Shown piece after piece: positions 5,747 through 56,246 of a stretch of 64,000 nt of DNA. Numbering within the stretch: the stretch's first letter is position 1; the number at the start of each line of letters is the position of its first letter. The translations under genes were made by a program, and so were the position numbers. The DNA is from Eubacteriales bacterium (lineage in GTDB: Bacteria; Bacillota; Clostridia; Lachnospirales; Lachnospiraceae), in NCBI GenBank assembly GCA_030536555.1, contig JAUNPU010000001.1, positions 107,814-171,813 on the forward strand, read 5' to 3'. The notes below the pieces were generated by a model. That model was not told the DNA's origin. It did not search any database and saw only the letters and a program-made list of their open reading frames with translations.

Positions 5747-5760
5747 AATTGGCAGAAAGA

Positions 5761-5787
5761 AAGCCGGAGTACCCCTCCGGCTTTTCC
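5761..5787. terminator. Bidirectional intrinsic terminator between convergent genes
   Basis: 9-bp stem aagccggag/ctccggctt with a 5-nt loop. An A-run lies upstream and T residues downstream, so a T-rich tail exists on the minus strand. It sits between the stops at 5746 (+) and 5793 (-). Confidence 0.7.
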
Positions 5788-5792
5788 ATATA

Positions 5793-6509: not shown

Positions 6510-6523
6510 AAAGTCACAACTCC

Positions 6524-6955: not shown

Positions 6956-7137
6956 AAACAACTGCCTCCAATATTCCATTAATTTAACAGGATATAAGGG
7001 TATTGTACAAAATATTCCGGAAAAAGTAAACAGGGAAAGAAAACAGAATCCTTGATTGCAGGTCAGTGTGTGATTTGATATAATAGAAGCCGAACAACGT
7101 GAAATCAACAGGACAAGACAGGACAGGAGGGGTGAAC

Positions 7138-8808: not shown

Positions 8809-8824
8809 CAGGAGGAAATGATAT

Positions 8825-10753
8825 ATGAAAGACGGATTTTTCCGCGTGGCGGCAGCGACGCCGAAGATAAAGGTAGCAGACCCGGTCTACAACCGGGAGC
8901 AGATCTGTGAGATGATCGAGGAAGGAACAAGGCTTGGGGTGGGCATGATGGTATTCCCGGAGCTGTCTCTGACGGCATACACCTGCGGCGATCTGTTCCT
9001 GCATTTTCCGCTGATCCGCAGGGCGAAGGAGGAGCTGAAAAAGATCGTGGAGTTCACGGCAGGACGGCAGATGCTGGTGTTTGTGGGGCTTCCCTGGGAG
9101 CACGGTGGCAAGCTGTACAATGTGGCGGCTGTGATCTGCAACGGGCAGCTGCTGGGTGTGGTTCCCAAGACCAACCTTCCCAATTACTCGGAATTCTATG
9201 AGCAGAGACACTTTACACCAGCTATGGAGTTCCAGGCGGAGACAGACTGGTTCGGCAGCAGGGTCATCATGGGAACGAATCTTCTGTTTGCCTGTCGGGA
9301 GATCCCGGAGCTGGTGGTGGCAGCGGAGATTTGTGAGGACGCATGGGTTCCGTGCCCGCCAAGTATCCGCCATGCCCTTGCCGGCGCGACGGTGATCGCC
9401 AACTGCTCTGCCAGCGACGAGGTGGTGGGAAAGGATACCTACCGCAGATCCCTGATTGGCGGACAGTCGGCGCGGCTGGTCTGCGGCTATGTCTATGCCA
9501 ATGCCGGGGAGGGAGAGTCCACCCAGGATCTGGTATTTGGCGGACACAATCTGATTGCGGAGAATGGAACCCTGCTGGCAGAGGCGAAGCGGTTCCATCC
9601 GGGAATGATCTGCGCTGATATGGATCTGGAGCGGCTTTGCAGCGAGCGCAGGCGGACTACCACCTATCCGGCACAGGATGACGGAATCTATCTGACCATT
9701 GATTTTTCCTTAAATACAGAAGCCATGGAAAAAGAGCAGGAGAAGAAGCTGCTTCGCTTCATCGACAGCCGCCCGTTCGTGCCCCAGGCGAAGGAGGAGC
9801 GCAGCAGACGGTGTGAGGAGATTTTCACCATTCAGGCGATGGGACTGAAGAAGCGTCTGGAGCACACCGGCACCCGGCATGTGGTGCTTGGAATCTCCGG
9901 CGGTCTGGACTCCACGCTGGCACTTTTGGTGGCGGCGAGAGCCTTTGATCTGCTGGATATTCCGAGACAGCAGATTCATGCAATCACCATGCCCTGCTTC
10001 GGCACCACCGACCGTACCTATCAGAATGCCTGCACCATGACCAGAAAGCTGGGGGCGACCCTGACCGAGGTGGATATCAAAGCATCCGTGATGCAGCATT
10101 TTTCGGATATCGGACACGATCCGTCCGTACACGATGTGACCTATGAGAACAGTCAGGCACGGGAGCGGACCCAGGTGCTGATGGATATTGCCAACCAGGT
10201 GGGCGGTCTGGTGATCGGTACCGGCGACATGTCGGAGCTGGCGCTGGGCTGGGCTACCTACAATGGTGACCACATGTCCATGTACGGCGTCAATGCCTCT
10301 GTGCCGAAGACCCTGGTGCGCCATCTGGTGCATTATTATGCGGATACCTGCGGAGAGCAGGAGCTTGAGGCGGTGCTGATGGATGTGCTGGATACGCCGG
10401 TCAGCCCGGAGCTTCTGCCGCCGGAGGACGGGGTGATCGCACAGAAAACTGAGGACCTGGTGGGACCCTACGAGCTGCATGATTTCTACCTGTACTATGT
10501 GCTGCGGTACGGCTATATGCCGTCCAAGATCTACCGTTTGGCACTGAGGGCATTTGCAGGAGAATATGAGGCAGAGACCATTGCAAAGTGGCTGAATGTA
10601 TTCTACCGCCGGTTCTTTGCACAGCAGTTCAAGCGCTCCTGTCTCCCGGACGGCCCGAAGGTGGGCTCTGTGGCAGTATCGCCCCGCGGTGACCTTAGGA
10701 TGCCCAGTGATGCGGCTAGACGGATCTGGATGGACGATCTGGAAAAGCTGTAA
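8825..10753 (+). CDS. nadE: Glutamine-dependent NAD+ synthetase
   Basis: 642 aa. N-terminal CN-hydrolase domain ([16 protein letters not shown]) plus a C-terminal NAD synthetase domain with the SGGLDS PP-loop. Confidence 0.9.
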
Positions 10754-10785
10754 ACGATATTATAATAGACGAGGATGATACAACC

Positions 10786-11580
10786 GTGATAACCAGTACA
10801 ACCAACAAACAGGTAAAATATGTAAATGCACTGATCAGGAAGGCGAAGACCCGGCGGGAGGAGGACCTTTTCGTGGCGGAGGGGCTTCGCATGTGCATGG
10901 AGATTCCCAAGGACCGGATCAGGACCCTCTACGTGTCCGAGAGCTTTCAGAAGAACCCGGAGTGTGCGGCGCTGGTGAAGGGGGTGCGCCATGTGGAGAC
11001 GGTGACGGATGAGGTGTTCAAGGCACTTTCCGACACCCAGACTCCCCAGGGCATCCTTGCGCTGGTGAAGCAGTACCACTACACCATCGACCAGGTGGCA
11101 GGAACCGGCGGGGACGGCGCTGCGCCGGCCCTTCTGATGATTCTGGAGCGGCTTCAGGACCCGGGGAATCTTGGCACCATCATCCGCGCCGGAGAGGGCG
11201 CCGGAGTGACGGGAATCCTGATGGATCAGGATACGGCGGACATCTACAACCCCAAGGTGATCCGCTCCACCATGGGATCGGTGCTTCGTGTGCCCTTCGT
11301 CTATGTGGACGATATGAAGGGGGCGCTGGAGCAGCTGAAGGATAAGAACATCCATCTCTACGCGGCGCATTTAAAAGGCAGATCTGCATATGATAAGGAA
11401 GACTACACCGGCGATACCGGATTTCTCATTGGAAATGAAGGAAACGGCTTGAGCGATGAGATTGCTGCCATGGCGGACACCTACATCCGGATTCCCATGG
11501 CGGGACAGGTGGAGTCCCTCAATGCGGCAGTCGCGGCGTCGGTGCTGATGTTCGAGACGGCGCGGCAGAGGAGAGGATAG
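10786..11580 (+). CDS. TrmH/SpoU-family RNA 2'-O-methyltransferase
   Basis: LERLQDPGNLGTIIRAGEGAG and IGNEGNGLS...IPM.G.VESLN motifs of SpoU methylases. GTG start as in the track. Confidence 0.8.
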   Translation: MITSTTNKQVKYVNALIRKAKTRREEDLFVAEGLRMCMEIPKDRIRTLYVSESFQKNPECAALVKGVRHVETVTDEVFKALSDTQTPQGILALVKQYHYTIDQVAGTGGDGAAPALLMILERLQDPGNLGTIIRAGEGAGVTGILMDQDTADIYNPKVIRSTMGSVLRVPFVYVDDMKGALEQLKDKNIHLYAAHLKGRSAYDKEDYTGDTGFLIGNEGNGLSDEIAAMADTYIRIPMAGQVESLNAAVAASVLMFETARQRRG

Positions 11581-11711
11581 GGGATATTCTTTACATATCC
11601 TTTACATTCTGTTCAGAAAAACTTAAGTAAGACAACAAGCCGGTTTTGTTGTAAAGTGTCTGAAAATATAGTATAATAGAGCCTGTAAAGCATTTGAGGA
11701 GGGAGGTTGAA

Positions 11712-12155
11712 ATGATGATATCCATCTATTGGCTGGTCGGCTTTGTCATACTGGTGGGAATCGAACTTGCAACGATGGCACTGACGACGATCTGGTTCGC
11801 AGGCGGCGCACTGGCGGCTTTTGTCCTGTCTCTGTTTGGAGTCAGCCTGGAGGTGCAGCTGGCGGTATTTGTGATCGTATCGTTTGTACTGCTGTTTTTC
11901 ACCAGACCCTTTGCTGCAAAGTATATTAACAGCGGTACCGTGAAGACCAATGCCGAGAGTCTGATCGGCAGAGAAGCGCGTGTAACCGCACAGATCAACA
12001 ATGAGCTTGGCACCGGAACGGCAGTGGTGGGCGGTCAGGAGTGGACGGCCAGAGCTGCGGAGGATTCCCAGATCATCGAACAGGGGACGAGGGTGTGGAT
12101 CCGGGAGATTCAGGGCGTGAAGCTGATTGTGAGCACATCGAAGGAGGGCTTGTAA
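11712..12155 (+). CDS. NfeD-family membrane protein
   Basis: Two or three N-terminal TM helices plus a C-terminal OB-like soluble domain. It sits immediately upstream of an SPFH gene, the classic NfeD-SPFH pair. ATG at 11712 follows gaggagggagg. Confidence 0.8.
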   Translation: MMISIYWLVGFVILVGIELATMALTTIWFAGGALAAFVLSLFGVSLEVQLAVFVIVSFVLLFFTRPFAAKYINSGTVKTNAESLIGREARVTAQINNELGTGTAVVGGQEWTARAAEDSQIIEQGTRVWIREIQGVKLIVSTSKEGL

Positions 12156-12156
12156 T

Positions 12157-13083
12157 ATGTTTGGAATGATTGTTTTTCTGGTACTTCTGCTTGTTATTTT
12201 AATGATTCTGGTATCCTGCGTGCGGATCGTACCACAGGCGCAGGCACTGGTGGTTGAGCGTCTGGGCGCTTATCTGGGAACCTGGTCCGTGGGCATCCAT
12301 TTCATGGTGCCGTTCATCGACCGGGTAGCCAAGCGGGTGATTTTGAAGGAGCAGGTTGTGGACTTTGCGCCGCAGCCGGTGATCACCAAGGATAACGTTA
12401 CCATGCGGATTGACACGGTGGTGTTCTTCCAGATCACGGACCCGAAGCTATACGCATACGGCGTTGAGAATCCGATCATGGCGATCGAGAATCTGACTGC
12501 GACCACCCTGAGAAATATCATCGGTGATCTGGAGTTAGACCAGACCCTGACTTCAAGAGAGACCATCAACACCAAGATGCGGGCGTCTCTGGATGTGGCT
12601 ACCGACCCGTGGGGCATCAAGGTGAACCGTGTGGAGCTTAAGAACATCATTCCGCCGGCAGCCATCCAGGATGCCATGGAGAAGCAGATGAAGGCGGAGC
12701 GTGAGCGCCGTGAAGCCATTCTCCGTGCGGAAGGTGAGAAGAAGTCCACGATCCTGGTGGCAGAAGGCAAGAAGGAATCTGCAATCCTGGATGCAGAGGC
12801 AGATAAGCAGGCGGCGATCCTTCACGCAGAGGCAGAGAAGGAGAAGCGCATCAAGGAGGCAGAAGGTGAGGCAGAGGCAATCCTGAAGGTTCAGCAGGCG
12901 AATGCAGACGGTATCCGCTTCCTGAAGGATGCAGGCGCCGACGAGGCTGTGCTGCGGCTGAAGAGTCTGGAAGCCTTCATGGCGGCAGCAGACGGCAAGG
13001 CAACCAAGATCATCATCCCGTCCGAGATTCAGGGGATGGCAGGTCTGGTGAAGTCCGTGACCGAAGTGGCAAAAGAGAATTGA
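12157..13083 (+). CDS. SPFH/Band-7 (stomatin/slipin-like) membrane protein
   Basis: N-terminal TM, SPFH core (IVPQAQALVVERLG...KDNV...) and a long C-terminal AE-rich coiled coil. Confidence 0.9.
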   Translation: MFGMIVFLVLLLVILMILVSCVRIVPQAQALVVERLGAYLGTWSVGIHFMVPFIDRVAKRVILKEQVVDFAPQPVITKDNVTMRIDTVVFFQITDPKLYAYGVENPIMAIENLTATTLRNIIGDLELDQTLTSRETINTKMRASLDVATDPWGIKVNRVELKNIIPPAAIQDAMEKQMKAERERREAILRAEGEKKSTILVAEGKKESAILDAEADKQAAILHAEAEKEKRIKEAEGEAEAILKVQQANADGIRFLKDAGADEAVLRLKSLEAFMAAADGKATKIIIPSEIQGMAGLVKSVTEVAKEN

Positions 13084-13103
13084 CGAGAAGAATAGATACG
13101 AAT

Positions 13104-13138
13104 AATTATGCATAAACATTAGATGTTTATGCATAATT
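13104..13138. promoter_or_regulatory. Perfect 16+16 bp inverted repeat (3-bp spacer) just upstream of the argF promoter; candidate ArgR/AhrC-type operator and/or terminator of the SPFH operon
   Basis: aattatgcataaacat-tag-atgtttatgcataatt read directly. A TTGACA (13143-13148)/TACATT (13166-13171) promoter follows. Confidence 0.4.
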
Positions 13139-13230
13139 TATCTTGACAGTTTCCTTCCGGTATAGTACATTATAGATATTCAAAATCAAATGAGGTTTAT
13201 AGATTATATTATAATAAAACGGAGGAGACA

Positions 13231-14226
13231 ATGATGAATTTAAAGGGAAGACATTTCTTAACACTGAAAGATTATACACCGGAAGAGATTAAATATTTAC
13301 TGGACCTTGCTGCGGAGCTAAAACGCAAGAAGAAGGAAGGCATTCCGGTGGACCATTACCACGGGAAGAATGTGGCGCTGATCTTCGAGAAGACCAGCAC
13401 CAGGACCCGCTGCTCCTTCGAGGTAGCTGCTCATGATATGGGTATGGGAACCACCTATCTGGACCCGTCAGGTTCCCAGATCGGCAAGAAGGAGAGCATT
13501 GCGGATACGGCGCAGGTCCTTGGCCGCATGTATGACGGCATCGAGTATCGTGGATTCGGTCAGGAAATCGTGGAGGAGCTGGCAAAGTATGCCGGAGTTC
13601 CGGTGTGGAACGGTCTGACCAATGAGTACCATCCCACCCAGATGCTGGCAGATATGCTGACCATTCAGGAGCATCTGGGACATCTGAAGGGACTGAAGCT
13701 GGTATACATGGGTGACGCCCGCTACAACATGGGCAACTCCCTGATGATCGCCAGCGCCAAGATGGGAATGGATTTTGTAGCCTGTGCGCCGAAGAAGTAT
13801 TTCCCGGATGCAAAGCTTGTGGCGGAGTGTGAAGAATATGCCAAGGCTTCCGGAGCGACCATTACGCTGACGGAGGATGTACAGGCGGGAACGAAGGACG
13901 CCGATGTGATCTGCACGGATGTGTGGGTATCCATGGGTGAGCCGGATGCTGTGTGGGAGGAGCGGATTCATGATCTGACCCCGTACAAGGTGACGGCTGA
14001 GGTGATGAAGAATGCCGGCGAGAAGGCAATCTTCCTCCACTGTCTGCCTGCGTTCCATGATTTGAAGACGAAGATTGGAAAGGAAATGGGAGAGCGGTTC
14101 GGCATTACGGATATGGAGGTGACGGACGAGGTATTTACCTCGGAGCAGTCCAAGGTATTTGACGAGGCGGAGAACCGCATGCATACCATCAAAGCGGTGA
14201 TGGTGGCAACCCTTGGTGAACAGTAA
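13231..14226 (+). CDS. argF: Ornithine carbamoyltransferase
   Basis: STRTRCSFE carbamoyl-phosphate motif, [13 protein letters not shown] and HCLP motifs. 331 aa. Confidence 0.9.
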
Positions 14227-14228
14227 GC

Positions 14229-14531
14229 ATGTTACAGGACAAGAAAAAGAACCCGCGCAATGTGGCGCTGATGATTGACATCCTCCACATTGCGGTGGGG
14301 ATCCTGGTGGTCGTGTGCGCGGTGCTGGCATTTTTGGACCCGGAGAACAATCAGTTTCTGTTTCCGGTGATCTTCTGGCTGGCGGCACTGCTCAACGGTG
14401 TGAACGGCAGATATCGTCTGCTGGAGTGCGGACGCGACAAGAAAAAGAAAGCTGGTGGAATTGCCCTCTGCGTGATCGCAGCAGGGCTGTTTCTCGTTGG
14501 TGTGATCAGCGCCATCAGCATCTGGAGGTAA
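14229..14531 (+). CDS. Small membrane protein (3 predicted TM helices), function unknown
   Basis: The ORF fits tightly between argF and birA. The hydrophobic segments are separated by K/R-rich loops. No recognised family. Confidence 0.5.
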   Translation: MLQDKKKNPRNVALMIDILHIAVGILVVVCAVLAFLDPENNQFLFPVIFWLAALLNGVNGRYRLLECGRDKKKKAGGIALCVIAAGLFLVGVISAISIWR

Positions 14532-14533
14532 CC

Positions 14534-15520
14534 TTGAACTTAAAAGATGAGATATTAAAATATTTAAAGCAGGAGCAGACCTACGTGTCCGGTCAGGAGC
14601 TCTGTGAGCGGCTTGGCGTGTCCAGAACGGCAGTCTGGAAGGTGATTCGCCAGATGGAGGAGGAAGGCTACCGCATTGAGGCGGTGCGCAACCGGGGTTA
14701 CCGTCTGGTGGAGAGCGGGGATGTCTACACGGAGGCGGAGATCCGAAGTCTCCTTACCACCAGATGGGCAGGGCAGAACCTGATCTTTCTGGATGAGGTG
14801 GATTCCACCAACAATGAGGCGAAGCGTCAGGCAGAGCAGGGTGCGCCTGAGGGAACCCTGGTGGTGGCAGAGCTGCAGAATGCAGGTAAGGGCCGCCGGG
14901 GCAGAAGCTGGAAGTCTCCCAAGGGAAGCGGTGTGTGGATGACTCTGGTCCTGCGGCCGGAATTCGGTCCGGAATGTGCTTCCATGCTGACGCTGATTGC
15001 GGCGCTGGCGACAGAGACGGGCATCCGCAAGGTGACGGGACTGGACTGCGGCATCAAGTGGCCCAATGATATTGTGGTGAACGGCTGTAAGCTGGTGGGC
15101 ATTCTGACGGAGATGAGCACGGATGTGGACAGCATTCAGCATGTGGTGGTGGGCATCGGCATCAACGCCAACATGAAGGAATTCCCGGAGGAGATCCGGT
15201 CCACAGCCACCTCACTGGCAATCGCCTCCGGCGGACCTGTGAAGCGGGCAGAGCTGGTGGCGGCGGTGATGGCTGCCTGGGAGCAGTATTATGAGATATT
15301 TTTACAGACGCTGGACTTAAGTCTGCTGCAGGATACCTACAACCAGAGACTGGTCAACTGCGGAAGAGAAGTGCGGGTACTGGCACCCAGGGGCGAGTAC
15401 ACCGGAATCTCCCACGGCATCAACCATACGGGAGAGCTGCTGGTGGAGACAAAAGACGGTCAGATCCGGGAAGTGGTGTCCGGCGAGGTGTCGGTGCGGG
15501 GGATCTACGGCTATGTATAG
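14534..15520 (+). CDS. birA: Bifunctional biotin-[acetyl-CoA-carboxylase] ligase / biotin operon repressor
   Basis: N-terminal HTH (SGQELCERLGVSRTAVWKVI) and GKGRRGRSW biotin-ligase motif. TTG start at 14534 follows ggagg; the longer track ORF (from 14315) would overlap the membrane-protein gene. Confidence 0.85.
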   Translation: MNLKDEILKYLKQEQTYVSGQELCERLGVSRTAVWKVIRQMEEEGYRIEAVRNRGYRLVESGDVYTEAEIRSLLTTRWAGQNLIFLDEVDSTNNEAKRQAEQGAPEGTLVVAELQNAGKGRRGRSWKSPKGSGVWMTLVLRPEFGPECASMLTLIAALATETGIRKVTGLDCGIKWPNDIVVNGCKLVGILTEMSTDVDSIQHVVVGIGINANMKEFPEEIRSTATSLAIASGGPVKRAELVAAVMAAWEQYYEIFLQTLDLSLLQDTYNQRLVNCGREVRVLAPRGEYTGISHGINHTGELLVETKDGQIREVVSGEVSVRGIYGYV

Positions 15521-46960: not shown

Positions 46961-47857
46961 ATGAACGGGAATCCGATACAGTGGCATCCGGGATTTCAGT
47001 CAGCCTTGCAGGTGGAGCTGCAGGATGACAGCAGTTATCTGACATTTGAGAAGGAGCGGAACCTTACGCAGAAGCCCTTGCAGATTGACACAGTGATTAT
47101 CAAGAAGGAAGGACATCAGGTCAGCAAGAGTATTGGCAGGTTTTTCAGAAAGTACAATATTGTCGAATATAAGAGTCCCGATGATTATGTGAGCATCAAT
47201 GTGTTTTACAAGGTATTGGCATATGCATGTCTGTATCAGTCCGAGACAGAGCATGTCAATGAGATTGATCCGAGGGAACTGACGATTACGCTGGTATGCA
47301 GTCATTTCCCAAGAGAATTGATGAAGCATTTGTATGAGATGTTTGGGACAGAGGCAGAAGAGGTGGATGCAGGAATCTATCATCTGACGAAGGTGCCGTT
47401 TCCGGTTCAGCTTATTATCATCCCGAAGCTGTCGCGGGAAGAGTATGTGTGGATGAGCCGGCTGCGATATGATTTGACGGTGAAGGAAGATATTGAACCG
47501 TTATTGAAAGCGTATCGCAGTCATGACCACAGTCCGTTATATCAGTCTGTAATGAATCTGATTGTGAGAGCAAATAAAGATGAATATGAGGAGGCGAAAG
47601 GGATGTGCGATGCGTTGATGGAATTGTTTGCAGATGAGTTGAGGGAGAAAGGACAGAGTGCGTGGCTGGAGGGTCAGATGGATACTCTGATAACAATGGT
47701 GCGAAGAAAGTATGAGAAGGGACTGAGTACGGCAGAGACCGCAGACTGCCTGGAGGTGGCGGTATCCGTGATAGAAGATGTCTATGAGCAGCTTCGCCGG
47801 AATCCGGACGCAGACAATGCTGAGATTTGTAAACAGTTGAAAGCAGTGAATATCTGA
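46961..47857 (+). CDS. PD-(D/E)XK nuclease-family putative transposase (Rpn/YhgA-like)
   Basis: D...IVEYKSP core motif and a C-terminal helical region typical of Rpn-like proteins in Firmicutes. Confidence 0.6.
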   Translation: MNGNPIQWHPGFQSALQVELQDDSSYLTFEKERNLTQKPLQIDTVIIKKEGHQVSKSIGRFFRKYNIVEYKSPDDYVSINVFYKVLAYACLYQSETEHVNEIDPRELTITLVCSHFPRELMKHLYEMFGTEAEEVDAGIYHLTKVPFPVQLIIIPKLSREEYVWMSRLRYDLTVKEDIEPLLKAYRSHDHSPLYQSVMNLIVRANKDEYEEAKGMCDALMELFADELREKGQSAWLEGQMDTLITMVRRKYEKGLSTAETADCLEVAVSVIEDVYEQLRRNPDADNAEICKQLKAVNI

Positions 47858-47954: not shown

Positions 47955-48009
47955 CAAAAAAACCGGTCCCGAAGCACTGACTGCGACGGAACCGATTAAA
48001 AAGGGGAGG
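47955..48009. repeat. attL direct repeat
   Basis: c-a7-ccggtcccgaagcactgActgcGacggaaccgattaaaaaggggagg. It is 45/47 identical to 54884-54930 and has one extra A in the A-run. Confidence 0.85.
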
Positions 48010-48178
48010 TTATTGTAATGACCATTTTAGGCGGTTTATACCCGTTTAAAGTGGTCTTATTGTTATTCAATTATATTTTTTGGAATTTATTTTGATTTAT
48101 ATTAGTGTAATAATTTGGTGTAAATATTGGTGTATAGAATATTGAAAAATAGATGTATTACCATTTTTCAGAATTGTA

Positions 48179-48406
48179 TTATTTGTAATTATCATTTCTT
48201 GGATATGGATTAGGCGTATCTGTTAATCCAGCAAGATAATCCATACTGGTATCTAATGCCACTGCTATTCTTTTGCATTGTTCAAATGTATAATACCGTT
48301 TTCCACTTTCAATTTTTGAATAATCACTTTGGTCAATTCCTGTTAGAAGTTGCATTTTAACTTGTGTATATCCTTTAGATTTTCGCAATTCCTTTAATCG
48401 TGACAT
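48179..48406 (-). CDS. XRE-family HTH transcriptional regulator (element repressor candidate)
   Basis: LKELRKSKGYTQ....TGI.QS.YSKIE.G HTH_3 pattern. Divergent from the element's rightward genes. Confidence 0.85.
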   Translation of the reverse strand: MSRLKELRKSKGYTQVKMQLLTGIDQSDYSKIESGKRYYTFEQCKRIAVALDTSMDYLAGLTDTPNPYPRNDNYK

Positions 48407-48464
48407 GACTCATCTCCTTCATAATTATATTTTTTGCATAGTTCGATTATGTCATACTGACCTA

Positions 48465-48493
48465 TTGACAATAGGGTGAAATTGACCTAAAAT
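48465..48493 (+). promoter_or_regulatory. Rightward element promoter with overlapping 15-bp palindrome (operator candidate)
   Basis: TTGACA (48465-48470), 17 nt spacer, TAAAAT (48488-48493). The palindrome CCTATTG-A-CAATAGG (48461-48475) overlaps the -35. Confidence 0.55.
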
Positions 48494-48522
48494 GAGAATA
48501 TTACAAGAAGGAGGTAACAAAT

Positions 48523-48690
48523 ATGGGACGAAAATCAAATAAATCCAGTGATGGATACAATTCTGGTATTTACTATTATGAAGATGAACCTGATGAGAGG
48601 GATTGTCCAGATTGCAACGGTACTGGATATGACCCATTGGATGGTGGACAATGTGATAGGTGCAACGGTACCGGAGTTATTGACCGATAG
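48523..48690 (+). CDS. 55-aa protein with two DnaJ-type CxxCxGxG zinc-finger motifs
   Basis: My own translation gives MGRKSNKSSDGYNSGIYYYEDEPDERDCPDCNGTGYDPLDGGQCDRCNGTGVIDR. RBS gaaggagg lies 8 nt upstream. Below the 60-aa track cutoff. Confidence 0.55.
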   Translation: MGRKSNKSSDGYNSGIYYYEDEPDERDCPDCNGTGYDPLDGGQCDRCNGTGVIDR

Positions 48691-48742
48691 TAGCAAGGTG
48701 ACCCATTTTATGTCACAAAATTAACTGTGGGAGGAAAAAGGG

Positions 48743-48895
48743 ATGAGTAAAGAAATACGAAAGCCGGAAGAATTTGAAAGAAAAGCGAGAATACCATCAC
48801 CATATACTGACAATGAAAATGAAAGGACATGGTTGCCTAAAATCGGTACTGATGATAAACGAATGAAAGATTTGGAAAAAATAAGAACGTATTGA
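48743..48895 (+). CDS. Hypothetical 50-aa protein
   Basis: My own translation gives MSKEIRKPEEFERKARIPSPYTDNENERTWLPKIGTDDKRMKDLEKIRTY. RBS gggaggaaaaaggg lies upstream. No recognisable family. Confidence 0.4.
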   Translation: MSKEIRKPEEFERKARIPSPYTDNENERTWLPKIGTDDKRMKDLEKIRTY

Positions 48896-48912
48896 TTCTA
48901 GGAGATTTTACA

Positions 48913-49164
48913 ATGGGACTATTTAGTAGATTGTTTGAGTCATTGAAAAACATAGATTCGAGAGATGTGGAACGTGTTGCTAATGACTTATACGATGTAG
49001 TGGAAAAGAAAACGGATGAGGCTAGAAGAAAAGCTGAAAAGCAAGCAGCATCTCAGTTAAGACAAAAATCTGATGACCAGTTGAGCCGTGGATATGAAAA
49101 AAATAAAGATAATCCAGTGGCTGAAAAACTTATACGCCAAGAAATGGAACGTAGAAAAAAGTAA
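48913..49164 (+). CDS. Hypothetical 83-aa charged/helical protein
   Basis: ATG at 48913 (MGLFSRLF) follows aggag. Lys/Glu-rich. No recognisable family. Confidence 0.5.
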   Translation: MGLFSRLFESLKNIDSRDVERVANDLYDVVEKKTDEARRKAEKQAASQLRQKSDDQLSRGYEKNKDNPVAEKLIRQEMERRKK

Positions 49165-49299
49165 ATATTTTTGGTTAAATAATATAACTGTAAGAATAAG
49201 ACAAAGGAGGTTAAGACCATGAATAGAGTTATTCTTGCGGTTATATTAAAAGCACTGTTAGAAATCATTGATGTCATTACGAATGGCGATTGAGTATCT

Positions 49300-49337
49300 T
49301 GACTTCCAGATAGTTAAACTATCTGGGAGTCTTTTTT
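49300..49337 (+). terminator. Intrinsic terminator ending the early small-gene transcript
   Basis: Stem cttccagatagtt/aactatctgggag followed by tctttttttc. Confidence 0.7.
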
Positions 49338-49512
49338 TCTTTAAGTAAAATTACAGATTCCACATGGTAAAAGAATTTTTCTATCAGAGATTCTATAGAA
49401 TTCCATGGAATCTTATAAAGAAAAAAAGAAATTTACAATATGGAACTAGAATAAGTATATTTATAGTGTATAATAATAGTTAATAGATTAATTTATACGG
49501 GGAGGAGATGCC

Positions 49513-50763
49513 ATGAGAAAATATGGCGACTTATTATCGGAAGTTTCCATTGATAAGAATTTTGAAAAACAACTCAAAAATTTTGTTAAGCCTAATTCAG
49601 ATTTTAAAGCTGTATGGGAGCAGATTTGTATGCTAGAGAGCCAATATCAGAGTGTGCCACCATACGGGATGGATAATGAACTCAAAATTGATTTTATGGA
49701 AAATATTGTGAAAGAAACACTATTTGATGATAGTCCTAATCCATATACAACTCTATGCGATAAGTTGATACGAGATGATAAAAATGCTTTCAAGCTAATA
49801 TTGTATCCATATGCCAATAGAATATCTTTACTACAAAGCGATATAAAGATGTGTTTAAAATATAATTATGACTTTGATTGCAGACAGAAAAAAGCAGGAC
49901 TCAATCGTTCAAATGATATTTTAGAGTTAACAAGGGAAAAGGAATATTATTTACCGTTTGCGTTGTTGGAAAATCAGTATGATGATTTTTGCTCATATAC
50001 ATGGCATAGTTTATTCCAAGACAGCGATGCAATAGCTTGCTTTAGTGTCGGAGATGGGAAATACTTTAATGCTCAAATATTTCCTAGAATTATAAAATCT
50101 TTGACATATGATAATAATGAATGTCCAGTTACAAATGATGACCGTTGGCTAATAGAAAAAATTTTTGGTGTGAATACGGTATTATCTTTAATGCCAGTAA
50201 TGGAAAAATCTTATGACGATAATACTTTTAAAAATGTTATAAGTCCGATTTTGGATATACTTTTAAGTTGCAAGCCAATACATATACGAACGACTTTAGC
50301 GGAGTTAATGAGTGATGTGTTGTGTGAAATGACCACAGCAAGTAAAAATTCACCATATGGTTTAAATGTAAATGATTTATATGATAAGAATGAGATTAAG
50401 AACCTATTAGATGAATTAAATGCTACAGTTTCAAAAATCAATATAATATATATTACAATATTAAATACCTTATATGATGCAAAGGTGAAATTAGAACCCC
50501 TTGTCATGGAAATAATATTAGCAAAGGATAATAGTTCCTGTTTTGTTGAAGCTGACTTACCACAACTCTCTTTTGGAAATGATGCCAAAATAGTGACCCC
50601 AGTGATTTTACTTGATATTACTAATAAAATCGAAACAATAAATAAGTTATTGACAACTTACCAAAAAAGGAATTATAATAAAGGGGATTTAGCATATAGA
50701 TATGGTTGTATACAATATCACGCAATAAGTTTTATTTATAAAGAAATGGAAAAGTTGAAATAG
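49513..50763 (+). CDS. Orphan 416-aa protein, no recognisable domain (element cargo gene)
   Basis: Strong RBS ggggaggag 7 nt before the ATG. Soluble, Asn/Lys/Asp-rich, very AT-rich coding sequence. It lies between a terminator upstream and a ~140-bp gap downstream. Confidence 0.7.
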   Translation: MRKYGDLLSEVSIDKNFEKQLKNFVKPNSDFKAVWEQICMLESQYQSVPPYGMDNELKIDFMENIVKETLFDDSPNPYTTLCDKLIRDDKNAFKLILYPYANRISLLQSDIKMCLKYNYDFDCRQKKAGLNRSNDILELTREKEYYLPFALLENQYDDFCSYTWHSLFQDSDAIACFSVGDGKYFNAQIFPRIIKSLTYDNNECPVTNDDRWLIEKIFGVNTVLSLMPVMEKSYDDNTFKNVISPILDILLSCKPIHIRTTLAELMSDVLCEMTTASKNSPYGLNVNDLYDKNEIKNLLDELNATVSKINIIYITILNTLYDAKVKLEPLVMEIILAKDNSSCFVEADLPQLSFGNDAKIVTPVILLDITNKIETINKLLTTYQKRNYNKGDLAYRYGCIQYHAISFIYKEMEKLK

Positions 50764-50905
50764 AATAGTAATTCCAAGGAACTGTTTGCTTAAAAAGCAA
50801 CAGTTCCTTTTTTGTCGCAATTTGCGACATAAGCCGTTTTCTCAATAATATGCCATAATGTATCTGTAACCGAGAATAACTCATTATAAACGGAGGAGAT
50901 ACGAT

Positions 50906-52567
50906 ATGTCTAAGCAAACAAGTAGTGCTATGTATGATGGAAACGGTTCCCAGAATGGTAGTTTCAGGGATATTATTACTTTTACGGATGGTAGCCCCAT
51001 AGATGCCATTACCTTTATGGCTGGTGTTCCTGCGGAAATCAGTGGTTCAAAACCGAGTATGCAACTAACTAATAAGCCTATAGAGCCAGTTCTCGATAAT
51101 ATGATAGTTGTTACTCCTACAGAGCAACAAACGGCATTAGAAGCCATTCCAGCGGTTGTAGAAGCCATTCCTGCGGTTGTAAAAGCCACTTTACCAGAAG
51201 CACCTCTCACAGATGCTAGAATCCATATGCCGATACCGCTGGACAAAGAATTGTTTAAAAAATCCGAGGTTGTTGAAGTAGTGGAAGAAAAGAGAAACAT
51301 GGTAAGTGTACGTTTATACAAAAAATTATTAAATGAATATAAGTTGCGAGTATACTGTGGTGATGTTTATCTGTTTGATGAAGTGCATGGTATATATAGG
51401 AAGCTATCTACAGACGATTTAAACTATCTCATTAATTTGCATTTTAGAGAGATTATCGAAAAGTGCGGCTTATATTTGTACGATGAAATTTTAATGCACC
51501 TTAAAGTGAATTATGAAATAGCTGTGCAAGAAGCTGATTTTCAGCCATTACAATACTGGGGATTTCAAAATGGTTTTTGTGATATTTATAAAGGAACTTG
51601 TATTGTAAATGACGGGCGTTATTTTGTACGAAACGTTTTAACGTGCGATTATCATTCAAAGGCAATCTGCCCTACTTTTGATAAGTTTCTTAACTCCATT
51701 GCCTGTGGTGATAATAGAATTATTAATCTTATCTGGGAGACGATAGGGTATTTGTTTTCTAACGATACAAACGCTAAACGATTTTTTGCATTTATTGGAT
51801 GCAAGAACTCCGGTAAGAGCCTGTTGGCACGAGTTATTACCAATATAATTGGTAATGATGCTACTACTCATTTAAGTCCAAGTGATTTTGCTGGTAGATT
51901 TAGCCTTAGTGGACTTAATGGAAAGAAGCTAAATACTTGCATGGATTTGCCAAACCGTGCTTTATCACCAGAAGTCCAAGCGATAATAAAGGAGATGACA
52001 GGAAATGATATTATGTACTCAGATGTGAAATACAAAGATGCAATTAGTTTTAAACCTACAGCTAGGTTGCTGTTTGGTTCTAACTATTTAATCAAAACGC
52101 AAGAATACGATTCGGCATTTGAAGAACGCTTAATTGTAATTCCGTTCCGTTACTCCATTCCAAGAGCTGAACAGGATTTTGATTTAGAACGGAAATTGCT
52201 GTTAGAGAAAGAAGGGATTTGTTTAAAAGCAATGCAGTATTATAAGGCATTGATATACAAGCGGTATCATTTTACCGACGTTGACTTATCCAGAGAGTTA
52301 GAAAACAATATAGATGATAATAAGGTTATAGAGTATTTTGCAAATGAGTGTTGCGAGTTTACTGATTCGAAATCCGATAAAGTGTTTTCCACGACATTGT
52401 ATGAAGCATATAGAGATTATTGCCATTCTAAGGATTTAGAGCCATTAAAAAATCCTGAGTTTTCCAGAAAATTTAATGATAAATTTTCCGGTAGAGTAAT
52501 AAAAAAGAAAATTAACATCAATGGCGAGTGTTTAAATGGCTTTGTATATCTTAAATTAAAACAATAA
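50906..52567 (+). CDS. Phage/plasmid primase-NTPase, P4/D5 family (C-terminal SF3-type NTPase domain)
   Basis: D5_N-like central region and Walker A GCKNSGKS, followed by hydrophobic-D/E and FGSNY motifs typical of P4-family primase C-terminal domains. The N-terminal ~130 aa are low-complexity. Confidence 0.75.
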   Translation: MSKQTSSAMYDGNGSQNGSFRDIITFTDGSPIDAITFMAGVPAEISGSKPSMQLTNKPIEPVLDNMIVVTPTEQQTALEAIPAVVEAIPAVVKATLPEAPLTDARIHMPIPLDKELFKKSEVVEVVEEKRNMVSVRLYKKLLNEYKLRVYCGDVYLFDEVHGIYRKLSTDDLNYLINLHFREIIEKCGLYLYDEILMHLKVNYEIAVQEADFQPLQYWGFQNGFCDIYKGTCIVNDGRYFVRNVLTCDYHSKAICPTFDKFLNSIACGDNRIINLIWETIGYLFSNDTNAKRFFAFIGCKNSGKSLLARVITNIIGNDATTHLSPSDFAGRFSLSGLNGKKLNTCMDLPNRALSPEVQAIIKEMTGNDIMYSDVKYKDAISFKPTARLLFGSNYLIKTQEYDSAFEERLIVIPFRYSIPRAEQDFDLERKLLLEKEGICLKAMQYYKALIYKRYHFTDVDLSRELENNIDDNKVIEYFANECCEFTDSKSDKVFSTTLYEAYRDYCHSKDLEPLKNPEFSRKFNDKFSGRVIKKKININGECLNGFVYLKLKQ

Positions 52568-52589
52568 TTGACAGCGTGGAGGATATGTA

Positions 52590-52790
52590 ATGGAGAAAGA
52601 GTATGTACCGCTTAATTGTAAGAGATTATTGAGTATGAGCGATTTTCAAAAATATGCCAGTATCGGAAGAAACAATGCGTTTAAGCTTGTAAAACGAGCG
52701 GGATGTGAAATCCGGATAGGGAATCGAGTATATGCCGATCGAGTAGCTTTTGATGAATGGTGTTCATCTCAAACAATAAATAAAATATAA
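52590..52790 (+). CDS. Excisionase-family/MerR-like small DNA-binding protein
   Basis: 66 aa. LSMSDFQKYASIGRNNAFKLVK....IRIGNRVY.DR.AFDEW pattern typical of the excisionase-family HTH. Directly upstream of the integrase. Confidence 0.65.
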   Translation: MEKEYVPLNCKRLLSMSDFQKYASIGRNNAFKLVKRAGCEIRIGNRVYADRVAFDEWCSSQTINKI

Positions 52791-52853
52791 ATCTAAACCA
52801 TGGGAGAAGGTGCAAACCTTCTCCCACATATTTAATTTAAAGGGGGTATTATT

Positions 52854-54017
52854 GTGGTTGATACAAAAGAAAAGAAATTGCCAAAAGGTATTACACTACG
52901 GTCAGACGGTTACTATATGGGACGTTTTACCTATTATGGAGAGCGATATACACTTTATGATAAAGATTTGAAAATATTGAAGAAAAAACTAGAAGATTTG
53001 CGTTATGAACTGGAACATGGATTGTATGCAAAAGAATCAGTAATAACCATTGATGACTGGTTTCATACGTGGATAGAAGAATATAAGAAACCGACTGTCA
53101 AACAAGGAACGGTAGGAGTATATCAAGACAATTATGATTCTTATATCAAGAAACCATTTGGTAAGAAAAAACTGAAAGATTTGCGTCCAGAGCAAATTCA
53201 AAACTTATACAATACACTTAATAAAGAGGGTTACTCAAGAAATACGATAGAGTTAGTGTCTGTTGTGTTGAGTGGTATGTATAAGCAAGCATACAAAAAT
53301 CAGTTAATTCAGAAGAATCCGGTGCCGCTTGCTACTCTTCCAAAAATGACAGAGAGAAAAGAACGTAGGGTATTGTCGAAGGAAGAACAGGAAATATTTA
53401 TGGAATCGGCTAAAAATCATCAGTATTATTATACCTTTGAATTAGCGCTTTCAACTGGTATGCGTAGTGGCGAAATAAGAGGATTAGAGTGGCAAGATAT
53501 TGACTTTTCAAATAGGATTATTCATGTACGTGGCACGCTAGTACAGAATCGTTATGGTTTTTATAAGGATTTGCCGAAAACACAAAGTAGTTATAGAGAT
53601 ATTCCGATGCTGGATAATGTCTATACATTGTTGAAGCAACGAAAAAAGTGCCAATCGGAGCAGAAACTTTTATTGGGAAACGAGTGGAAGCCATTGAAAG
53701 GATTAGAAAATTTGATTGTTACTACTAATACAGGACACCCTGTAGGAAAAGGATATTTGAATAATGCAATTAATAGAATTACGCTTAAGATACAAAAAGA
53801 ATATCCAGAGTTTGAGGAACTGTCAATTCATACTATGCGACATACGTTTGCAACACGATGCATCGAGAATGGAATGGAGCCACAAGTGCTAAAAGCAATA
53901 CTGGGACATTCTAAACTTTCAATGACAATGGATTTATATGCACATGTGCTTCCAGATACAAAGTCAAAGGAGATTCAAAAGATTGCGAATCTGTTTCGGT
54001 CAGAATATGTGTCTTGA
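52854..54017 (+). CDS. int: Tyrosine-type site-specific integrase
   Basis: N-terminal SAM-like domain, a catalytic domain with R (GMRSGEIRGL), HxxR (HTMRHTFAT) and LGHS....T.D.YAH containing the Tyr nucleophile. GTG start follows aaggggg. Confidence 0.9.
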   Translation: MVDTKEKKLPKGITLRSDGYYMGRFTYYGERYTLYDKDLKILKKKLEDLRYELEHGLYAKESVITIDDWFHTWIEEYKKPTVKQGTVGVYQDNYDSYIKKPFGKKKLKDLRPEQIQNLYNTLNKEGYSRNTIELVSVVLSGMYKQAYKNQLIQKNPVPLATLPKMTERKERRVLSKEEQEIFMESAKNHQYYYTFELALSTGMRSGEIRGLEWQDIDFSNRIIHVRGTLVQNRYGFYKDLPKTQSSYRDIPMLDNVYTLLKQRKKCQSEQKLLLGNEWKPLKGLENLIVTTNTGHPVGKGYLNNAINRITLKIQKEYPEFEELSIHTMRHTFATRCIENGMEPQVLKAILGHSKLSMTMDLYAHVLPDTKSKEIQKIANLFRSEYVS

Positions 54018-54057
54018 GCATTATATTATTCCAATATAGCAAAGAAATTATGATTTG

Positions 54058-54103
54058 GTGAAAAAAGACCTATTTGCTGTGTGATTCTGAGCAAGTAGGT
54101 CTT
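54058..54103 (-). terminator. Intrinsic terminator of the minus-strand XRE gene (also separates it from int)
   Basis: 14-bp stem aagacctatttgct/agcaagtaggtctt (one G-U pair) with a tttttt run on the minus strand. Confidence 0.65.
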
Positions 54104-54302
54104 AATCCTTGTAATGTGTTGCAATATCTTCAATTTTACAATCTAATATATTGCATAATGTGTTAATTGAGTTCATACTGATGCCCTCATTATTTCTCAG
54201 CCTATGCAAAAGAGATTTACTGATATGATATTTCGAGGTCAAGGTATATTGTGTAACTCCCTTTTCTTTCATGGTTTCCCATAATTTGTCATATTTAATC
54301 AT
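54102..54302 (-). CDS. XRE/Cro-type HTH regulator (second, right-end copy)
   Basis: 66 aa. KEKGVTQYTL.....ISKS.L.RL pattern of the HTH_26/HTH_3 type. Confidence 0.75.
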   Translation of the reverse strand: MIKYDKLWETMKEKGVTQYTLTSKYHISKSLLHRLRNNEGISMNSINTLCNILDCKIEDIATHYKD

Positions 54303-54399
54303 TAATCTTACCTTTGTATATTGTTATAGTTTGATTTTACATCTATACTAAGTATGTACAAAGGTTCTGTTTTCAGACCCTCAGAGAGGAGACGATATT

Positions 54400-54732
54400 T
54401 TGAAGAGTTATATATTGCGGTTTGGAGTGCTTTTTTTGCTGGGAGTATTTATAGGATGGAATTATCCAGAGCGTAGTGTTGAAAAACGAGATTTTGAAAT
54501 TATTCATAGCTATTCATATGTAGGTGGAGGATATAAAACAACTACACTGAGTGTAATTGTAAATATAGAGGACTATGATACAGGAGAAATGTTGGAACGT
54601 GTGAAAAAATATCATTATGAAAGAAATAGTGTTTCTAATGAATTAACAATCAAATTGTATGATGGAAGAAGCGCATTTGAAAATCATAGATGCAGAATTG
54701 AAAGAACTTATATAAGTGATAGGGGGGATTAA
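54400..54732 (+). CDS. Hypothetical 110-aa protein with N-terminal TM/signal anchor
   Basis: TTG start follows gagaggaga. N-terminal hydrophobic segment ILRFGVLFLLGVFIGW. No recognisable family. Confidence 0.45.
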   Translation: MKSYILRFGVLFLLGVFIGWNYPERSVEKRDFEIIHSYSYVGGGYKTTTLSVIVNIEDYDTGEMLERVKKYHYERNSVSNELTIKLYDGRSAFENHRCRIERTYISDRGD

Positions 54733-54752
54733 TACATAATACGAGGATGCGG

Positions 54753-54781
54753 TTGACGGTATCTAAAAGAACATTTATAAT
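54753..54781 (+). promoter_or_regulatory. Element-borne outward-facing promoter resembling the host promoter at 47915-47943
   Basis: TTGACG, 17 nt spacer, TATAAT. The 30-bp block 54752-54781 is 24/30 identical to 47914-47943. Confidence 0.5.
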
Positions 54782-54875
54782 GATTTTGTAATAAAAATGG
54801 TGTATTATTGGTGTATAACTTAATTTCGCTATAATCTATCTATGACATGAGTGGAGCGAAACCTACGGTTTTACA

Positions 54876-54930
54876 ACAAAAAACCGGTCCCGAAGCACTG
54901 TCTGCAACGGAACCGATTAAAAAGGGGAGG
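54876..54930. repeat. attR direct repeat
   Basis: c-a6-ccggtcccgaagcactgTctgcAacggaaccgattaaaaaggggagg. See attL. Confidence 0.85.
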
Positions 54931-55028
54931 ATAAGTATTTCTTTTTTCTTTGGTACTACTCTCATTATCTCCTTCCTGTTCCAGATTATACACTGCACGG
55001 AAAATATTTTAAAATTAAAGGAGCGCAT

Positions 55029-56246
55029 ATGAAAAACATTATCGTTGGTCAGTCCGGCGGACCTACCGCTGTCATCAACGCCAGCCTTTACGGCGTGATT
55101 ATGGAGGCACTTTCACACGAGGATCAGATTGGCCATGTCTATGGCATGGTGAACGGTATTGAGGGACTTCTTCAGGACAAATACATGGATTTGGGAACGG
55201 AGCTTATGGCGGAGGACAGGGAGCTTCTGAAGCTGACACCGGCTGCCTATCTGGGTTCCTGCCGCTACAAGCTGCCGGAGGATTTGTCTTCTACATTTTA
55301 TAAGACGATATTTGAAAAGTTCGGTGAGCTGAATATTGGATATTTTTTCTACATTGGCGGCAATGATTCTATGGATACGGTCAGTAAGCTGTCCCGCTAT
55401 GCAGCGCAGGTGGGAAGTGATATCCGCTTCATCGGCGTGCCGAAGACCATTGACAATGATCTGATTCAGACCGACCACACTCCGGGATACGGAAGTGCAG
55501 CCAAGTATGTGGCTTCTACCGTTCGTGAAATCGTGCTGGATTCTTCCGTATATCAGCAGAAGTCTGTGACGATCATTGAGCTGATGGGCCGTCACGCTGG
55601 CTGGCTGACTGCGGCAAGTGTGCTGGCAAGAAAGCACCCGGATGACAACCCGGTGCTGATCTACCTGCCGGAGTCTGACTTTGAGCTGGAGAACTTTGCA
55701 CGGGATCTGGAGAAAGCTCTGGAGAAGCAGTCCAATGTGATCGTCTGCGTGTCTGAGGGCATTTCTGACGCATCCGGTACTTTTATCTGTGAGTACGGAG
55801 ATGAGGCGCAGGTGGACAACTTCGGTCACAAGATGCTGACCGGCTGCGGCAAGGTGTTGGAGAACTTTGTCCGCCACAAATTCGGCGTGAAGGTTCGCTC
55901 TGTGGAACTGAACGTATGCCAGCGCTGTTCCGGCATGATTGCTTCTGCTGTGGATATTGAGGAGGCTGCGGCTGCCGGTAAGGAGGGCGTGAAGGCTGCT
56001 CTGGCAGGCGAGACCGGTAAGATGATCGCATTCTGCCGTGTCAGCCAGTCTCCGTACCGGATGGAGTGCCGCACCGTGGATGTGAATGAGGTCTGCAATC
56101 AGGAGAAGCCGGTTCCGGCTGAGTGGATTACCGGAGATGCCAATGACATCGGTCAGGCATTTATCGACTATGCGCTGCCGCTGATTCAGGGCGAGGTGGA
56201 CCGTGTGATGGAGTGCGGAATTCCGAAATATCTGGAGAGAAAGTAA
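55029..56246 (+). CDS. pfp: 6-phosphofructokinase with PPi-dependent-type signature residues
   Basis: PFK family motifs GGPTAVINAS, GGNDS, PKTIDNDL and MGRHAGWL. An Asp occupies the GGxDS position and a Lys occupies the PKTIDND position. These are the residues associated with PPi rather than ATP use. Confidence 0.85.
   Translation: MKNIIVGQSGGPTAVINASLYGVIMEALSHEDQIGHVYGMVNGIEGLLQDKYMDLGTELMAEDRELLKLTPAAYLGSCRYKLPEDLSSTFYKTIFEKFGELNIGYFFYIGGNDSMDTVSKLSRYAAQVGSDIRFIGVPKTIDNDLIQTDHTPGYGSAAKYVASTVREIVLDSSVYQQKSVTIIELMGRHAGWLTAASVLARKHPDDNPVLIYLPESDFELENFARDLEKALEKQSNVIVCVSEGISDASGTFICEYGDEAQVDNFGHKMLTGCGKVLENFVRHKFGVKVRSVELNVCQRCSGMIASAVDIEEAAAAGKEGVKAALAGETGKMIAFCRVSQSPYRMECRTVDVNEVCNQEKPVPAEWITGDANDIGQAFIDYALPLIQGEVDRVMECGIPKYLERK

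Follow-up and report, generated by a model that had tools for sequence, protein, structure and literature searches.

A rare protein family that co-varies with an adjacent palindrome is most likely the on-switch of a small integrative island in a Lachnospiraceae bacterium

The stretch of DNA analysed here (the window; 64,000 nucleotides of contig JAUNPU010000001.1 from an Eubacteriales bacterium of the family Lachnospiraceae) carries a 6.9-kb island with a GC content of 30-35%, as compared to ~50% in its flanks, which is bounded by two 56-nt direct repeats that are 95% identical. Within this island, a leftward gene for an XRE-type repressor is followed by three small open reading frames (ORFs), by the gene that is the subject of this study (49513-50763, plus strand; hereafter X), and by genes for a helicase, an Xis-like protein, a tyrosine integrase, an HTH_26 protein and a 110-aa protein (Table 1). 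In the strictly anaerobic Firmicutes of the gut, the commitment of small satellite-like islands to excision and replication is poorly understood. We propose that X is most likely the island's own on-switch for both processes, so that the proposed point of decision comes down to a 15-bp site and a single uncharacterised protein.

An original prediction made from the DNA letters had described X as a separately transcribed gene for a 416-aa orphan protein, and its observations were confirmed here. The ORF is placed as described and starts with an ATG, and the strong ribosome-binding site (RBS) is GGGAGGAG at 49500-49507, 7 nt 5' of the ATG. The intrinsic terminator reported upstream of X (T1) is a hairpin at 49301-49331 followed by a U-run, and none of 200 shuffled sequences was equally stable. 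A second intrinsic terminator (T2; hairpin 50776-50809 plus U-run), missed in the original prediction, follows the X stop codon, so that the case for X as its own transcription unit, with terminators on both sides and a probable -10 hexamer of its own, is stronger than was then known. The AT-rich gap between T1 and the ATG measures 175 bp within a non-coding stretch of 348 nt that is 28% GC in its entirety, and the gap between X and the next gene measures 142 bp (50764-50905). The upstream region of X is not empty, as it holds a conserved, uncalled mini-ORF just before T1 and seven RTTCYA half-sites; the gap 3' of X contains a perfect 15-bp palindrome and a -10 hexamer.

X was also said to lack any recognisable motif, and we likewise found no P-loop, no stretch of transmembrane grade (maximum hydrophobicity KD19 = 1.28) and no match in Pfam-A, NCBIfam or PHROGs profiles; PADLOC-DB v2 yielded 0 families at E <= 0.1 for X and for the adjoining helicase. 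A search of PDB sequences with the single X sequence gave no match, and the profile yielded only weak matches (poxvirus M11L, E 0.03), which were dismissed as spurious. The label of orphan, by contrast, does not apply, since a rare homologous family exists beyond this strain. A word-indexed search of 5.8 billion clusters recovered one homologue with 36% identity, and an exhaustive HMMER search of 1.84 billion protein representatives listed 27 proteins, including the query and one spurious match; the family comprises about 26 clusters among these representatives. The spurious match, a weakly matching 1361-aa protein (P0028) considered as a possible fusion, was rejected because it is a eukaryotic AIG1 GTPase. 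X was not found in a tblastn search of 50,697 phage and 72,556 plasmid records with three alleles, nor by pattern scans of GTDB species representatives and JGI metagenomes, and a scan of GTDB representative genomes for the helicase found nothing. The family is carried on four IMG/VR contigs, and one allele (P0054) is common, being indexed in 422 blocks of a public-assembly collection. The X family is rare and is found in small gut-bacterial islands; X has no confident match to a routine protein and is conserved outside the strain in which it was predicted.

None of the 23 family members that could be aligned matches a Pfam or PHROG family. The alignment shows an N-terminal MxKYGDL, the core motifs DFCxYTW, DRWLIEKIFGxNT, CKPIxIR and INxxY, invariant residues D210, W212, E215, R259 and N310, two near-invariant Cys and no conserved His; conservation is concentrated in residues 1-20, 141-320 and 381-416, with residues 21-100 and 321-380 being variable. 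An AlphaFold model built from this alignment (used in place of a 2-sequence run that gave a predicted local distance difference test score (pLDDT) of 36) is all-alpha, with a pLDDT of 80.3 and a predicted template modelling score of 0.86, and places D210, E215, R259 and N310 on three adjacent conserved helices. Foldseek comparison of the model found no structural neighbour in PDB (best E 1.1) or BFVD (best E 0.26), with all TM-scores about 0.2 or lower, so that X is as unrecognisable by predicted fold as by sequence. We rejected a catalytic-Tyr relaxase or rolling-circle initiator because the conserved Tyr positions Y4 and Y313 are Phe in several members and no HUH motif is present, and a PD-(D/E)xK nuclease built on D210...E215-K216 was rejected because these residues lie within one predicted helix. 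X was not recognised as a primase of the archaeo-eukaryotic primase (AEP) or Staphylococcus aureus pathogenicity island (SaPI) Pri type, given the all-alpha model, the lack of a conserved His and the lack of an AEP match by Pfam or Foldseek. Nor was it recognised as an RRNPP regulator, as no Pfam match to HTH_3 or TPR was found in the 23 members and no RRNPP structure among the Foldseek PDB matches. X represents a new protein family and fold, most likely one doing a known kind of job, i.e., element-specific control of excision and replication.

The genomic context of X was compared across 12 informative distinct loci (related loci carry L numbers below). A homologue of X lies directly upstream of a helicase gene on the same strand in 12/12 loci, a small ORF, often Xis-like, follows the helicase in all but L015, and a tyrosine integrase gene lies further downstream wherever the contig is long enough. 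The helicase belongs to superfamily 3 (SF3; D5/DUF5906 type) in the window, L001, L002/3, L007-9, L011/12, L013 and L015/16, and to superfamily 2 (SF2; DEAD/ResIII type) in L004, L005/6, L010 and L017-25, a split that is not congruent with similarity among the X proteins. Several integrase types are represented, and the upstream neighbours of X vary as well (XRE plus small ORFs, resolvase, MazE/PIN, AAA_14, or a RecT/Sak-YqaJ-DUF932 block). X is present in every related island, including minimal islands of 6-7 kb with little else, and is the first gene of a rightward operon at a divergent control region in relatives of 15 kb. Gene content varies elsewhere, namely in the small early ORFs (which have no counterpart in L001), in the slot between int and attR (empty in L001) and in the left arm of the 15-kb islands. 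The co-occurrence with helicase and int genes that had been suggested as a check on the original prediction was found in the informative loci, with int wherever the contig is long enough; X is a fixed syntenic core component and not loose cargo.

An intrinsic terminator closes X in all loci and is immediately followed by a short palindrome, which is single-copy within each locus. The palindrome is GTTGCA-N3-TGCAAC in L001, L002, L004, L007 and L011, with the variants GTGGGAAATTTCCGC, GTTCCATTTTGTGGAAC, TGTGAAAATTTCGCA, TACGAAAATTTCGTA and ACGTTTC-N9-GAAACGT in other loci. Because a terminator separates X from the helicase gene, the helicase operon needs its own promoter, and in 10 of the 12 loci the distance from the palindrome centre to the start of a -10-like hexamer is exactly 32.5 nt, with a displacement of no more than 1-2 nt in the other two. 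Base counts over the 12 hexamers (T10 A12 T8 A7 A8 T12) give the consensus TATAAT, with A2 and T6 invariant. The probability of this phasing by chance was estimated at about 2e-12 from a binomial that ignores relatedness of the loci, though the spacers cannot be aligned between alleles. Matches to a -35 element averaged 2.17/6, no better than the random expectation of 2.55, and the spacers between palindrome and -10 are 25 nt long with up to ~48% GC. Given this fixed phasing of a dyad site upstream of a -10 and the lack of a -35, the region has the architecture of a class-II-like activator-dependent promoter; the 25-nt spacing and sequence misfit led us to reject the palindrome itself as a -35 element or a sigma-54 site.

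X and its palindrome are exchanged as a cassette. Within the module X diverges fastest, with identities of 34-59% in the window group as compared to 84-91% for the integrase and 48-59% for the helicase. The disparity is larger in the backbone shared by L010, L018 and L019, where the integrases are 99%, the helicases 82-90% and the X proteins 28-35% identical; all DNA flanking the cassette is 88-97% identical among these three islands, and their palindromes differ (ACGTTTC-N9-GAAACGT, TGTGAAAATTTCGCA and TACGAAAATTTCGTA). When L018 is compared to L010, nucleotide identity of 97% extends to 17 nt inside the X ORF, no similarity is detectable over the body of X, the terminator, the palindrome and the -10, and similarity returns, at 92% and over 4 kb, from a point 17 nt 5' of the helicase ATG; the comparison of L018 with L019 gives the same pattern. 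Boundaries are sharp, with similarity stopping 17-40 nt into the X ORF and restarting 17-27 nt before the helicase ATG, and at least three X alleles, each with a different palindrome, thus occur in one backbone. Palindrome type tracks X and not the class of helicase, as L004 combines an SF2 helicase with the GTTGCA-type site of its SF3-linked relatives. Since the remaining proteins of the L010, L018 and L019 islands are near-identical, X is the only island-encoded protein able to read the allele-specific site. The variability of X is allelic, within one family, and goes together with that of a matching palindrome whose distance from the -10 is fixed; this coupling points to a regulatory or specificity role.

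We tentatively favour a reading in which X activates the helicase-xis-int operon as a DNA-binding protein, probably dimeric, that is specific to its island. Relief of the XRE-type repressor would allow the early unit and X to be transcribed from conserved promoters, with the X transcript terminating at X's own terminator; X, probably as a dimer, would then bind the downstream palindrome at about -52 to -38 and bring RNA polymerase to a promoter with a good -10 but lacking a -35, which would turn on the genes for the replicative helicase, the integrase and the excisionase-like protein. We infer binding of the palindrome by X, an activating and not a repressing effect of this binding, and a purpose in the control of excision and replication. 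Because protein and site would diversify together, related islands would form orthogonal specificity groups, each possibly answering a different inducing signal. The other candidate DNA binder, the XRE repressor, appears to be accounted for by a different conserved operator of its own. The pairing of protein and site is unusually clear and cheaply testable and, if the reading is true, would provide a new DNA-binding activator fold without known relatives as well as a natural set of orthogonal protein-operator pairs that could serve as genetic parts in Clostridia.

A number of observations weigh against X as an activator. No DNA-binding domain (helix-turn-helix (HTH), winged HTH or ribbon) was found by Pfam in the 23 members or by Foldseek against PDB and BFVD; X is acidic (pI 5.0) and net basic only in its last ~55 residues, and 416 aa is large for a simple activator. 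No alignment column clearly tracks palindrome class, as the only six candidates are scattered, mostly hydrophobic and uninformative. Part of the co-variation of protein and palindrome would be expected simply because the two are physically linked in one swapped segment, the palindrome could in principle be read by a host factor or by the helicase, which is moderately divergent, instead of by X, and the invariant D, E, R and N might belong to an active site and not to a surface for DNA binding or dimerisation.

The exchange of X with its putative cognate site resembles that of lambdoid imm regions and of SaPI Stl or Rep-ori types, in which a protein and its site are swapped as a block, and, as in phage immunity cassettes, boundaries are sharp and several specificity types occur in one backbone. 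Unlike the proteins of immunity cassettes, however, X is not an HTH repressor, has 400-550 aa and a novel fold, and its site lies where an activator, and not a repressor, would act. X also shares features with RRNPP regulators (AimR of arbitrium phages, Rgg/ComR, PlcR and Rap), which are large, all-helical, cytoplasmic regulators that decide the behaviour of mobile elements; ComR, PlcR and Rgg boxes are palindromes located just 5' of promoters without a -35, and a short hydrophobic 24-codon ORF that may or may not encode a signalling peptide is located just upstream of X in the window. Unlike these regulators, X has no N-terminal HTH_3, no TPR or RRNPP structure appeared among its Foldseek matches although many are in PDB, and the mini-ORF is limited to three closely related islands rather than being family-wide. 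A wider form of the proposal, which we regard as possible but doubtful, is that X is the founding member of a new family of transcription activators that are large, all-alpha, sequence-specific and of novel fold, and that serve gut Firmicutes' small integrative islands as signal-sensing ignition switches. Contact with RNA polymerase or dimerisation would fall to the conserved core and termini, the variable residues 21-100 and 321-380 would set DNA specificity and inducing signal, and the cassettes would be orthogonal "induction types" comparable to phage immunity types, but positive-acting; the inducing signal might be, e.g., a helper-phage protein or, in the window subgroup, the adjacent 24-residue peptide.

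The main rival of the activator reading is that X is an origin-recognition initiator, which would bind the palindrome as an origin core and recruit the SF3 or SF2 helicase, such that the cassette would be an initiator-origin module. Modules of protein and origin specificity are known, e.g., the SaPI Rep-ori and lambdoid O-ori pairs, and X and its site are likewise swapped as one cassette; a gene followed by its own binding site is the classic initiator-origin layout. X is found strictly beside the helicase across two helicase superfamilies, occupies the slot of pri in SaPI pri-rep modules and precedes, in the window, a helicase without the N-terminal primase/initiator part of its phage relatives, and the neighbours of X in the larger relatives are recombination and replication genes (YqaJ, Sak or RecT, and DUF932). 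The palindrome itself, however, is a single 15-bp site without an iteron array or an A/T-rich unwinding region beside it (the 25-nt spacers reach ~48% GC), and its exact phasing with a sigma-A-type -10 that lacks a -35 points to transcription. D5-type helicases also normally bind origins through a C-terminal domain of their own, and the window helicase has Pox_D5, while the fold of X is unlike that of any known initiator by Foldseek. Finally, in the window group a far more origin-like iteron array with A/T tracts sits upstream of X. This array of RTTCYA half-sites is the densest 230-nt window in the 64 kb (30/kb vs 2.3/kb), similar arrays of 6-9 RTTCYA/TRGAAY half-sites, with direct repeats and palindromes, occur in L001 (9798-9908), L002 (1833-1903) and L011 (1576-1673), and the array occurs only in islands with an SF3 helicase. 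Judged by its repeats, it is a candidate replication origin (iterons) or an operator array overlapping the X promoter, and appears to be a better origin candidate than the palindrome; a role as XRE operator was rejected because the XRE promoter region has a different conserved motif. We consider the initiator reading unlikely.

The original prediction had viewed X as a candidate defence, abortive-infection or helper-interference effector, and the allelic divergence of X would then reflect an arms race with phages. The separate transcription unit and the lack of a recognisable function agree with this view, satellites carry defence hotspots, and alleles that are 28-35% identical in backbones that are 92-97% identical represent a hypervariability that is typical of conflict genes; as in the defence hotspots of P4-like satellites, a highly variable locus is located between conserved core genes. 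In contrast to such hotspots, the variation of X is allelic and cis-coupled, with homologues of one family at one fixed position and no replacement by unrelated genes or systems, and the PADLOC search suggested with the prediction was negative for X and its neighbour. An effector would also need no palindrome and promoter of conserved geometry that co-vary with it, and would not be expected as a core gene of every related island, including the minimal ones, when variation in gene content is located in other slots. The assignment of X to defence or interference cargo therefore did not hold up, and we consider it quite improbable.

That X is a novel non-AEP, non-DnaG primase or another helicase-partner enzyme replacing a missing primase domain is very improbable: the match of the window helicase to primase-helicase fusions is confined to their C-terminal part, none of the island genes examined encodes a protein with a detectable primase domain and the invariant polar residues D210, E215, R259 and N310 cluster on adjacent helices, but the all-alpha fold is unlike AEP, Toprim or any polymerase, two near-invariant Cys without a conserved His are too few for a zinc or Fe-S site, the allele-specific palindrome and the terminator between X and helicase are left unexplained, and a catalytic protein is not expected at 28% identity while the helicase stays at 89%.

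With an integrase, a master repressor and a Rep helicase in a small island between att repeats, the element carries the features by which phage-inducible chromosomal islands (PICIs) and SaPIs are recognised. The StCI satellites of S. thermophilus have been described as islands of 7-20 kb with integrase, regulatory and replication genes (PMC13376191). As in SaPIs, PICIs and StCIs, a small chromosomal island between direct repeats encodes a tyrosine integrase, an Xis-like protein, a divergent XRE-type repressor and a D5/P4-type Rep helicase, without virion genes. X fills the slot directly upstream of the helicase gene in which pri sits in SaPIs, without similarity to SaPI Pri in sequence or fold. 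Unlike these elements, the island spans only 6.9 kb, lacks a primase domain, terS, and capsid-size or packaging genes, and has int at the downstream end of the helicase operon; no primase, terS, packaging or capsid-redirection domain was found in any ORF of 47957-54933. The naming of the neighbouring gene as a primase gene, an annotation habit that the original prediction shared, is corrected by these data. Like P4 alpha and phage D5-type primase-helicases, the protein has D5_N, an SF3 helicase domain (DUF5906) and Pox_D5, it passes TIGR01613 primase_Cterm, and it matches P4-family primase-helicases over residues ~135-545 only, with no primase domain found by Pfam, PHROG or NCBIfam. Unlike in P4 alpha, the first ~135 residues are of low complexity, and these residues never align with relatives in 678 phage records. 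This N-terminus (50906-51310) is not conserved in L001 and stands in place of the primase domain of phage relatives; it includes a perfect-frame 21-nt tandem duplication at 51138-51179 (TAGAAGCCATTCC(A/T)GCGGTTG x2), which encodes (L)EAIPAVV twice.

Table 1. Features of the island and of the X locus, in window coordinates
Feature	Position	Strand	Remarks
attL, left copy of 56-nt repeat	47957..48012		95% identity to 54878-54933; GC drop
XRE-type HTH repressor, 75 aa	48179..48406	-	Divergent from small early ORFs; 89% identical to L001 copy
Operator-promoter region (predicted), TTGACCTA-repeat / ACCTATTGACAATAGGGT motif	48440..48492		Between XRE gene and early ORFs; read from sequences
Three small early ORFs (55-aa zinc-ribbon-like, 50 aa, 90 aa)	48523..49164	+	Not conserved between related islands
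Uncalled 24-codon mini-ORF MNRVILAVILKALLEIIDVITNGD	49219..49293	+	RBS AAAGGAGG; stop 8 nt before T1
Terminator T1, ends early unit	49301..49341	+	14-bp stem and U-run; dG -21.4 kcal/mol, z -7.5
Array of 7 RTTCYA half-sites	49357..49452		Includes palindromes ATTCTATAGAAT and TTCCATGGAA, with A/T tracts between
TATAAT -10 hexamer, probable promoter of X	49469..49474	+	Perfect TATAAT read from sequence; TTTACA-18-TATATT match nearby
X, 416-aa protein gene	49513..50763	+	ATG start; ORF list, family alignment, model
Terminator T2, directly 3' of X	50776..50813	+	dG -18, z -4.9; terminator at same place in every related locus examined
Perfect 15-bp palindrome GTCGCAATTTGCGAC	50814..50828		Sole copy in 64-kb window; proposed X binding site
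CATAAT -10 hexamer with TG extension, without -35	50854..50859	+	Starts 32.5 nt from palindrome centre; helicase operon promoter (predicted)
SF3 helicase, 553 aa	50906..52567	+	D5_N, DUF5906, Pox_D5; P4-family primase C-terminal part
Xis-like HTH protein, 66 aa	52590..52790	+	Weak DUF6462 match; homologues elsewhere match Tn916-Xis / HTH_17
Tyrosine integrase, 387 aa	52854..54017	+	Pfam
Variable slot between int and attR	54102..54732		HTH_26 gene and 110-aa gene; absent from L001
attR, right copy of 56-nt repeat	54878..54933		Repeat comparison

Upstream of X, the region with the TTGACCTA repeat and the ACCTATTGACAATAGGGT motif is nearly identical in L001, L002 and L011 and probably represents operators of the XRE repressor that overlap divergent promoters. 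Among the proteins of the early unit, the 55-aa protein (48523-48690) has two CxxC pairs and a weak, sub-threshold likeness to the DnaJ CXXCXGXG zinc finger and to Q-like anti-termination PHROGs, and may be a small zinc-ribbon regulator. The mini-ORF between the small early ORFs and T1 (22-24 codons with a strong RBS) is found only in the closest relatives, i.e., the window, L001 (9659-9733) and L011 (1448-1516)/L012; the encoded sequences are MNRVILAVILKALLEIIDVITNGD, MTNIVLTVILKALIEIIDVLGKKE and MGILTVLLKALIDIIDIISKDE, and it could encode a short hydrophobic signalling peptide or a small toxin, or could be a leader controlling read-through into X.

The 56-nt att repeat terminates in the RBS-like sequence AAAAAGGGGAGG and is located ~95 nt 5' of a pyrophosphate-dependent phosphofructokinase-like gene (55029-56246); a similar sequence directly follows the integrase gene in the related L001 island. 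No tRNA and no Rfam match were found at the att site, and Rfam gave no match over the whole island. The real variable cargo slot of the island is the one between int and attR, which contains an HTH_26 gene (54102-54302, minus strand) and a gene for a 110-aa protein with a hydrophobic N-terminus and no family match (54400-54732, plus strand). L011 and L012 are 6513-bp contigs from different samples that show 12 differences and end at the island borders without terminal overlap; circular (episomal) contigs were thus rejected, and the surroundings of the island are probably variable or repeated, which would interrupt assembly.

An island type of ~15 kb is found beside ychF in L021-L025 (about 270-15480) and in L018/L019, with a core of DUF932-YqaJ-Sak on the minus strand and of X, an SF2 helicase, a 170-aa protein and Tn916-type Xis-Int on the plus strand. 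Its left arm varies, carrying either proteins of 508 and 588 aa without known function together with a resolvase and LPD28, or DUF3846 and an AAA-ATPase_like/PDDEXK_9 protein, and is a likelier site for defence cargo. Just outside attL in the window, a 298-aa ORF (46961-47857) has no significant Pfam, PADLOC, PHROG or NCBIfam match and resembles, by eye, the Rpn/YhgA-like (Transposase_31) recombination-promoting nucleases; a Transposase_31 gene is located inside 15-kb relatives (L018 245-1198 and L021 5692-6585).

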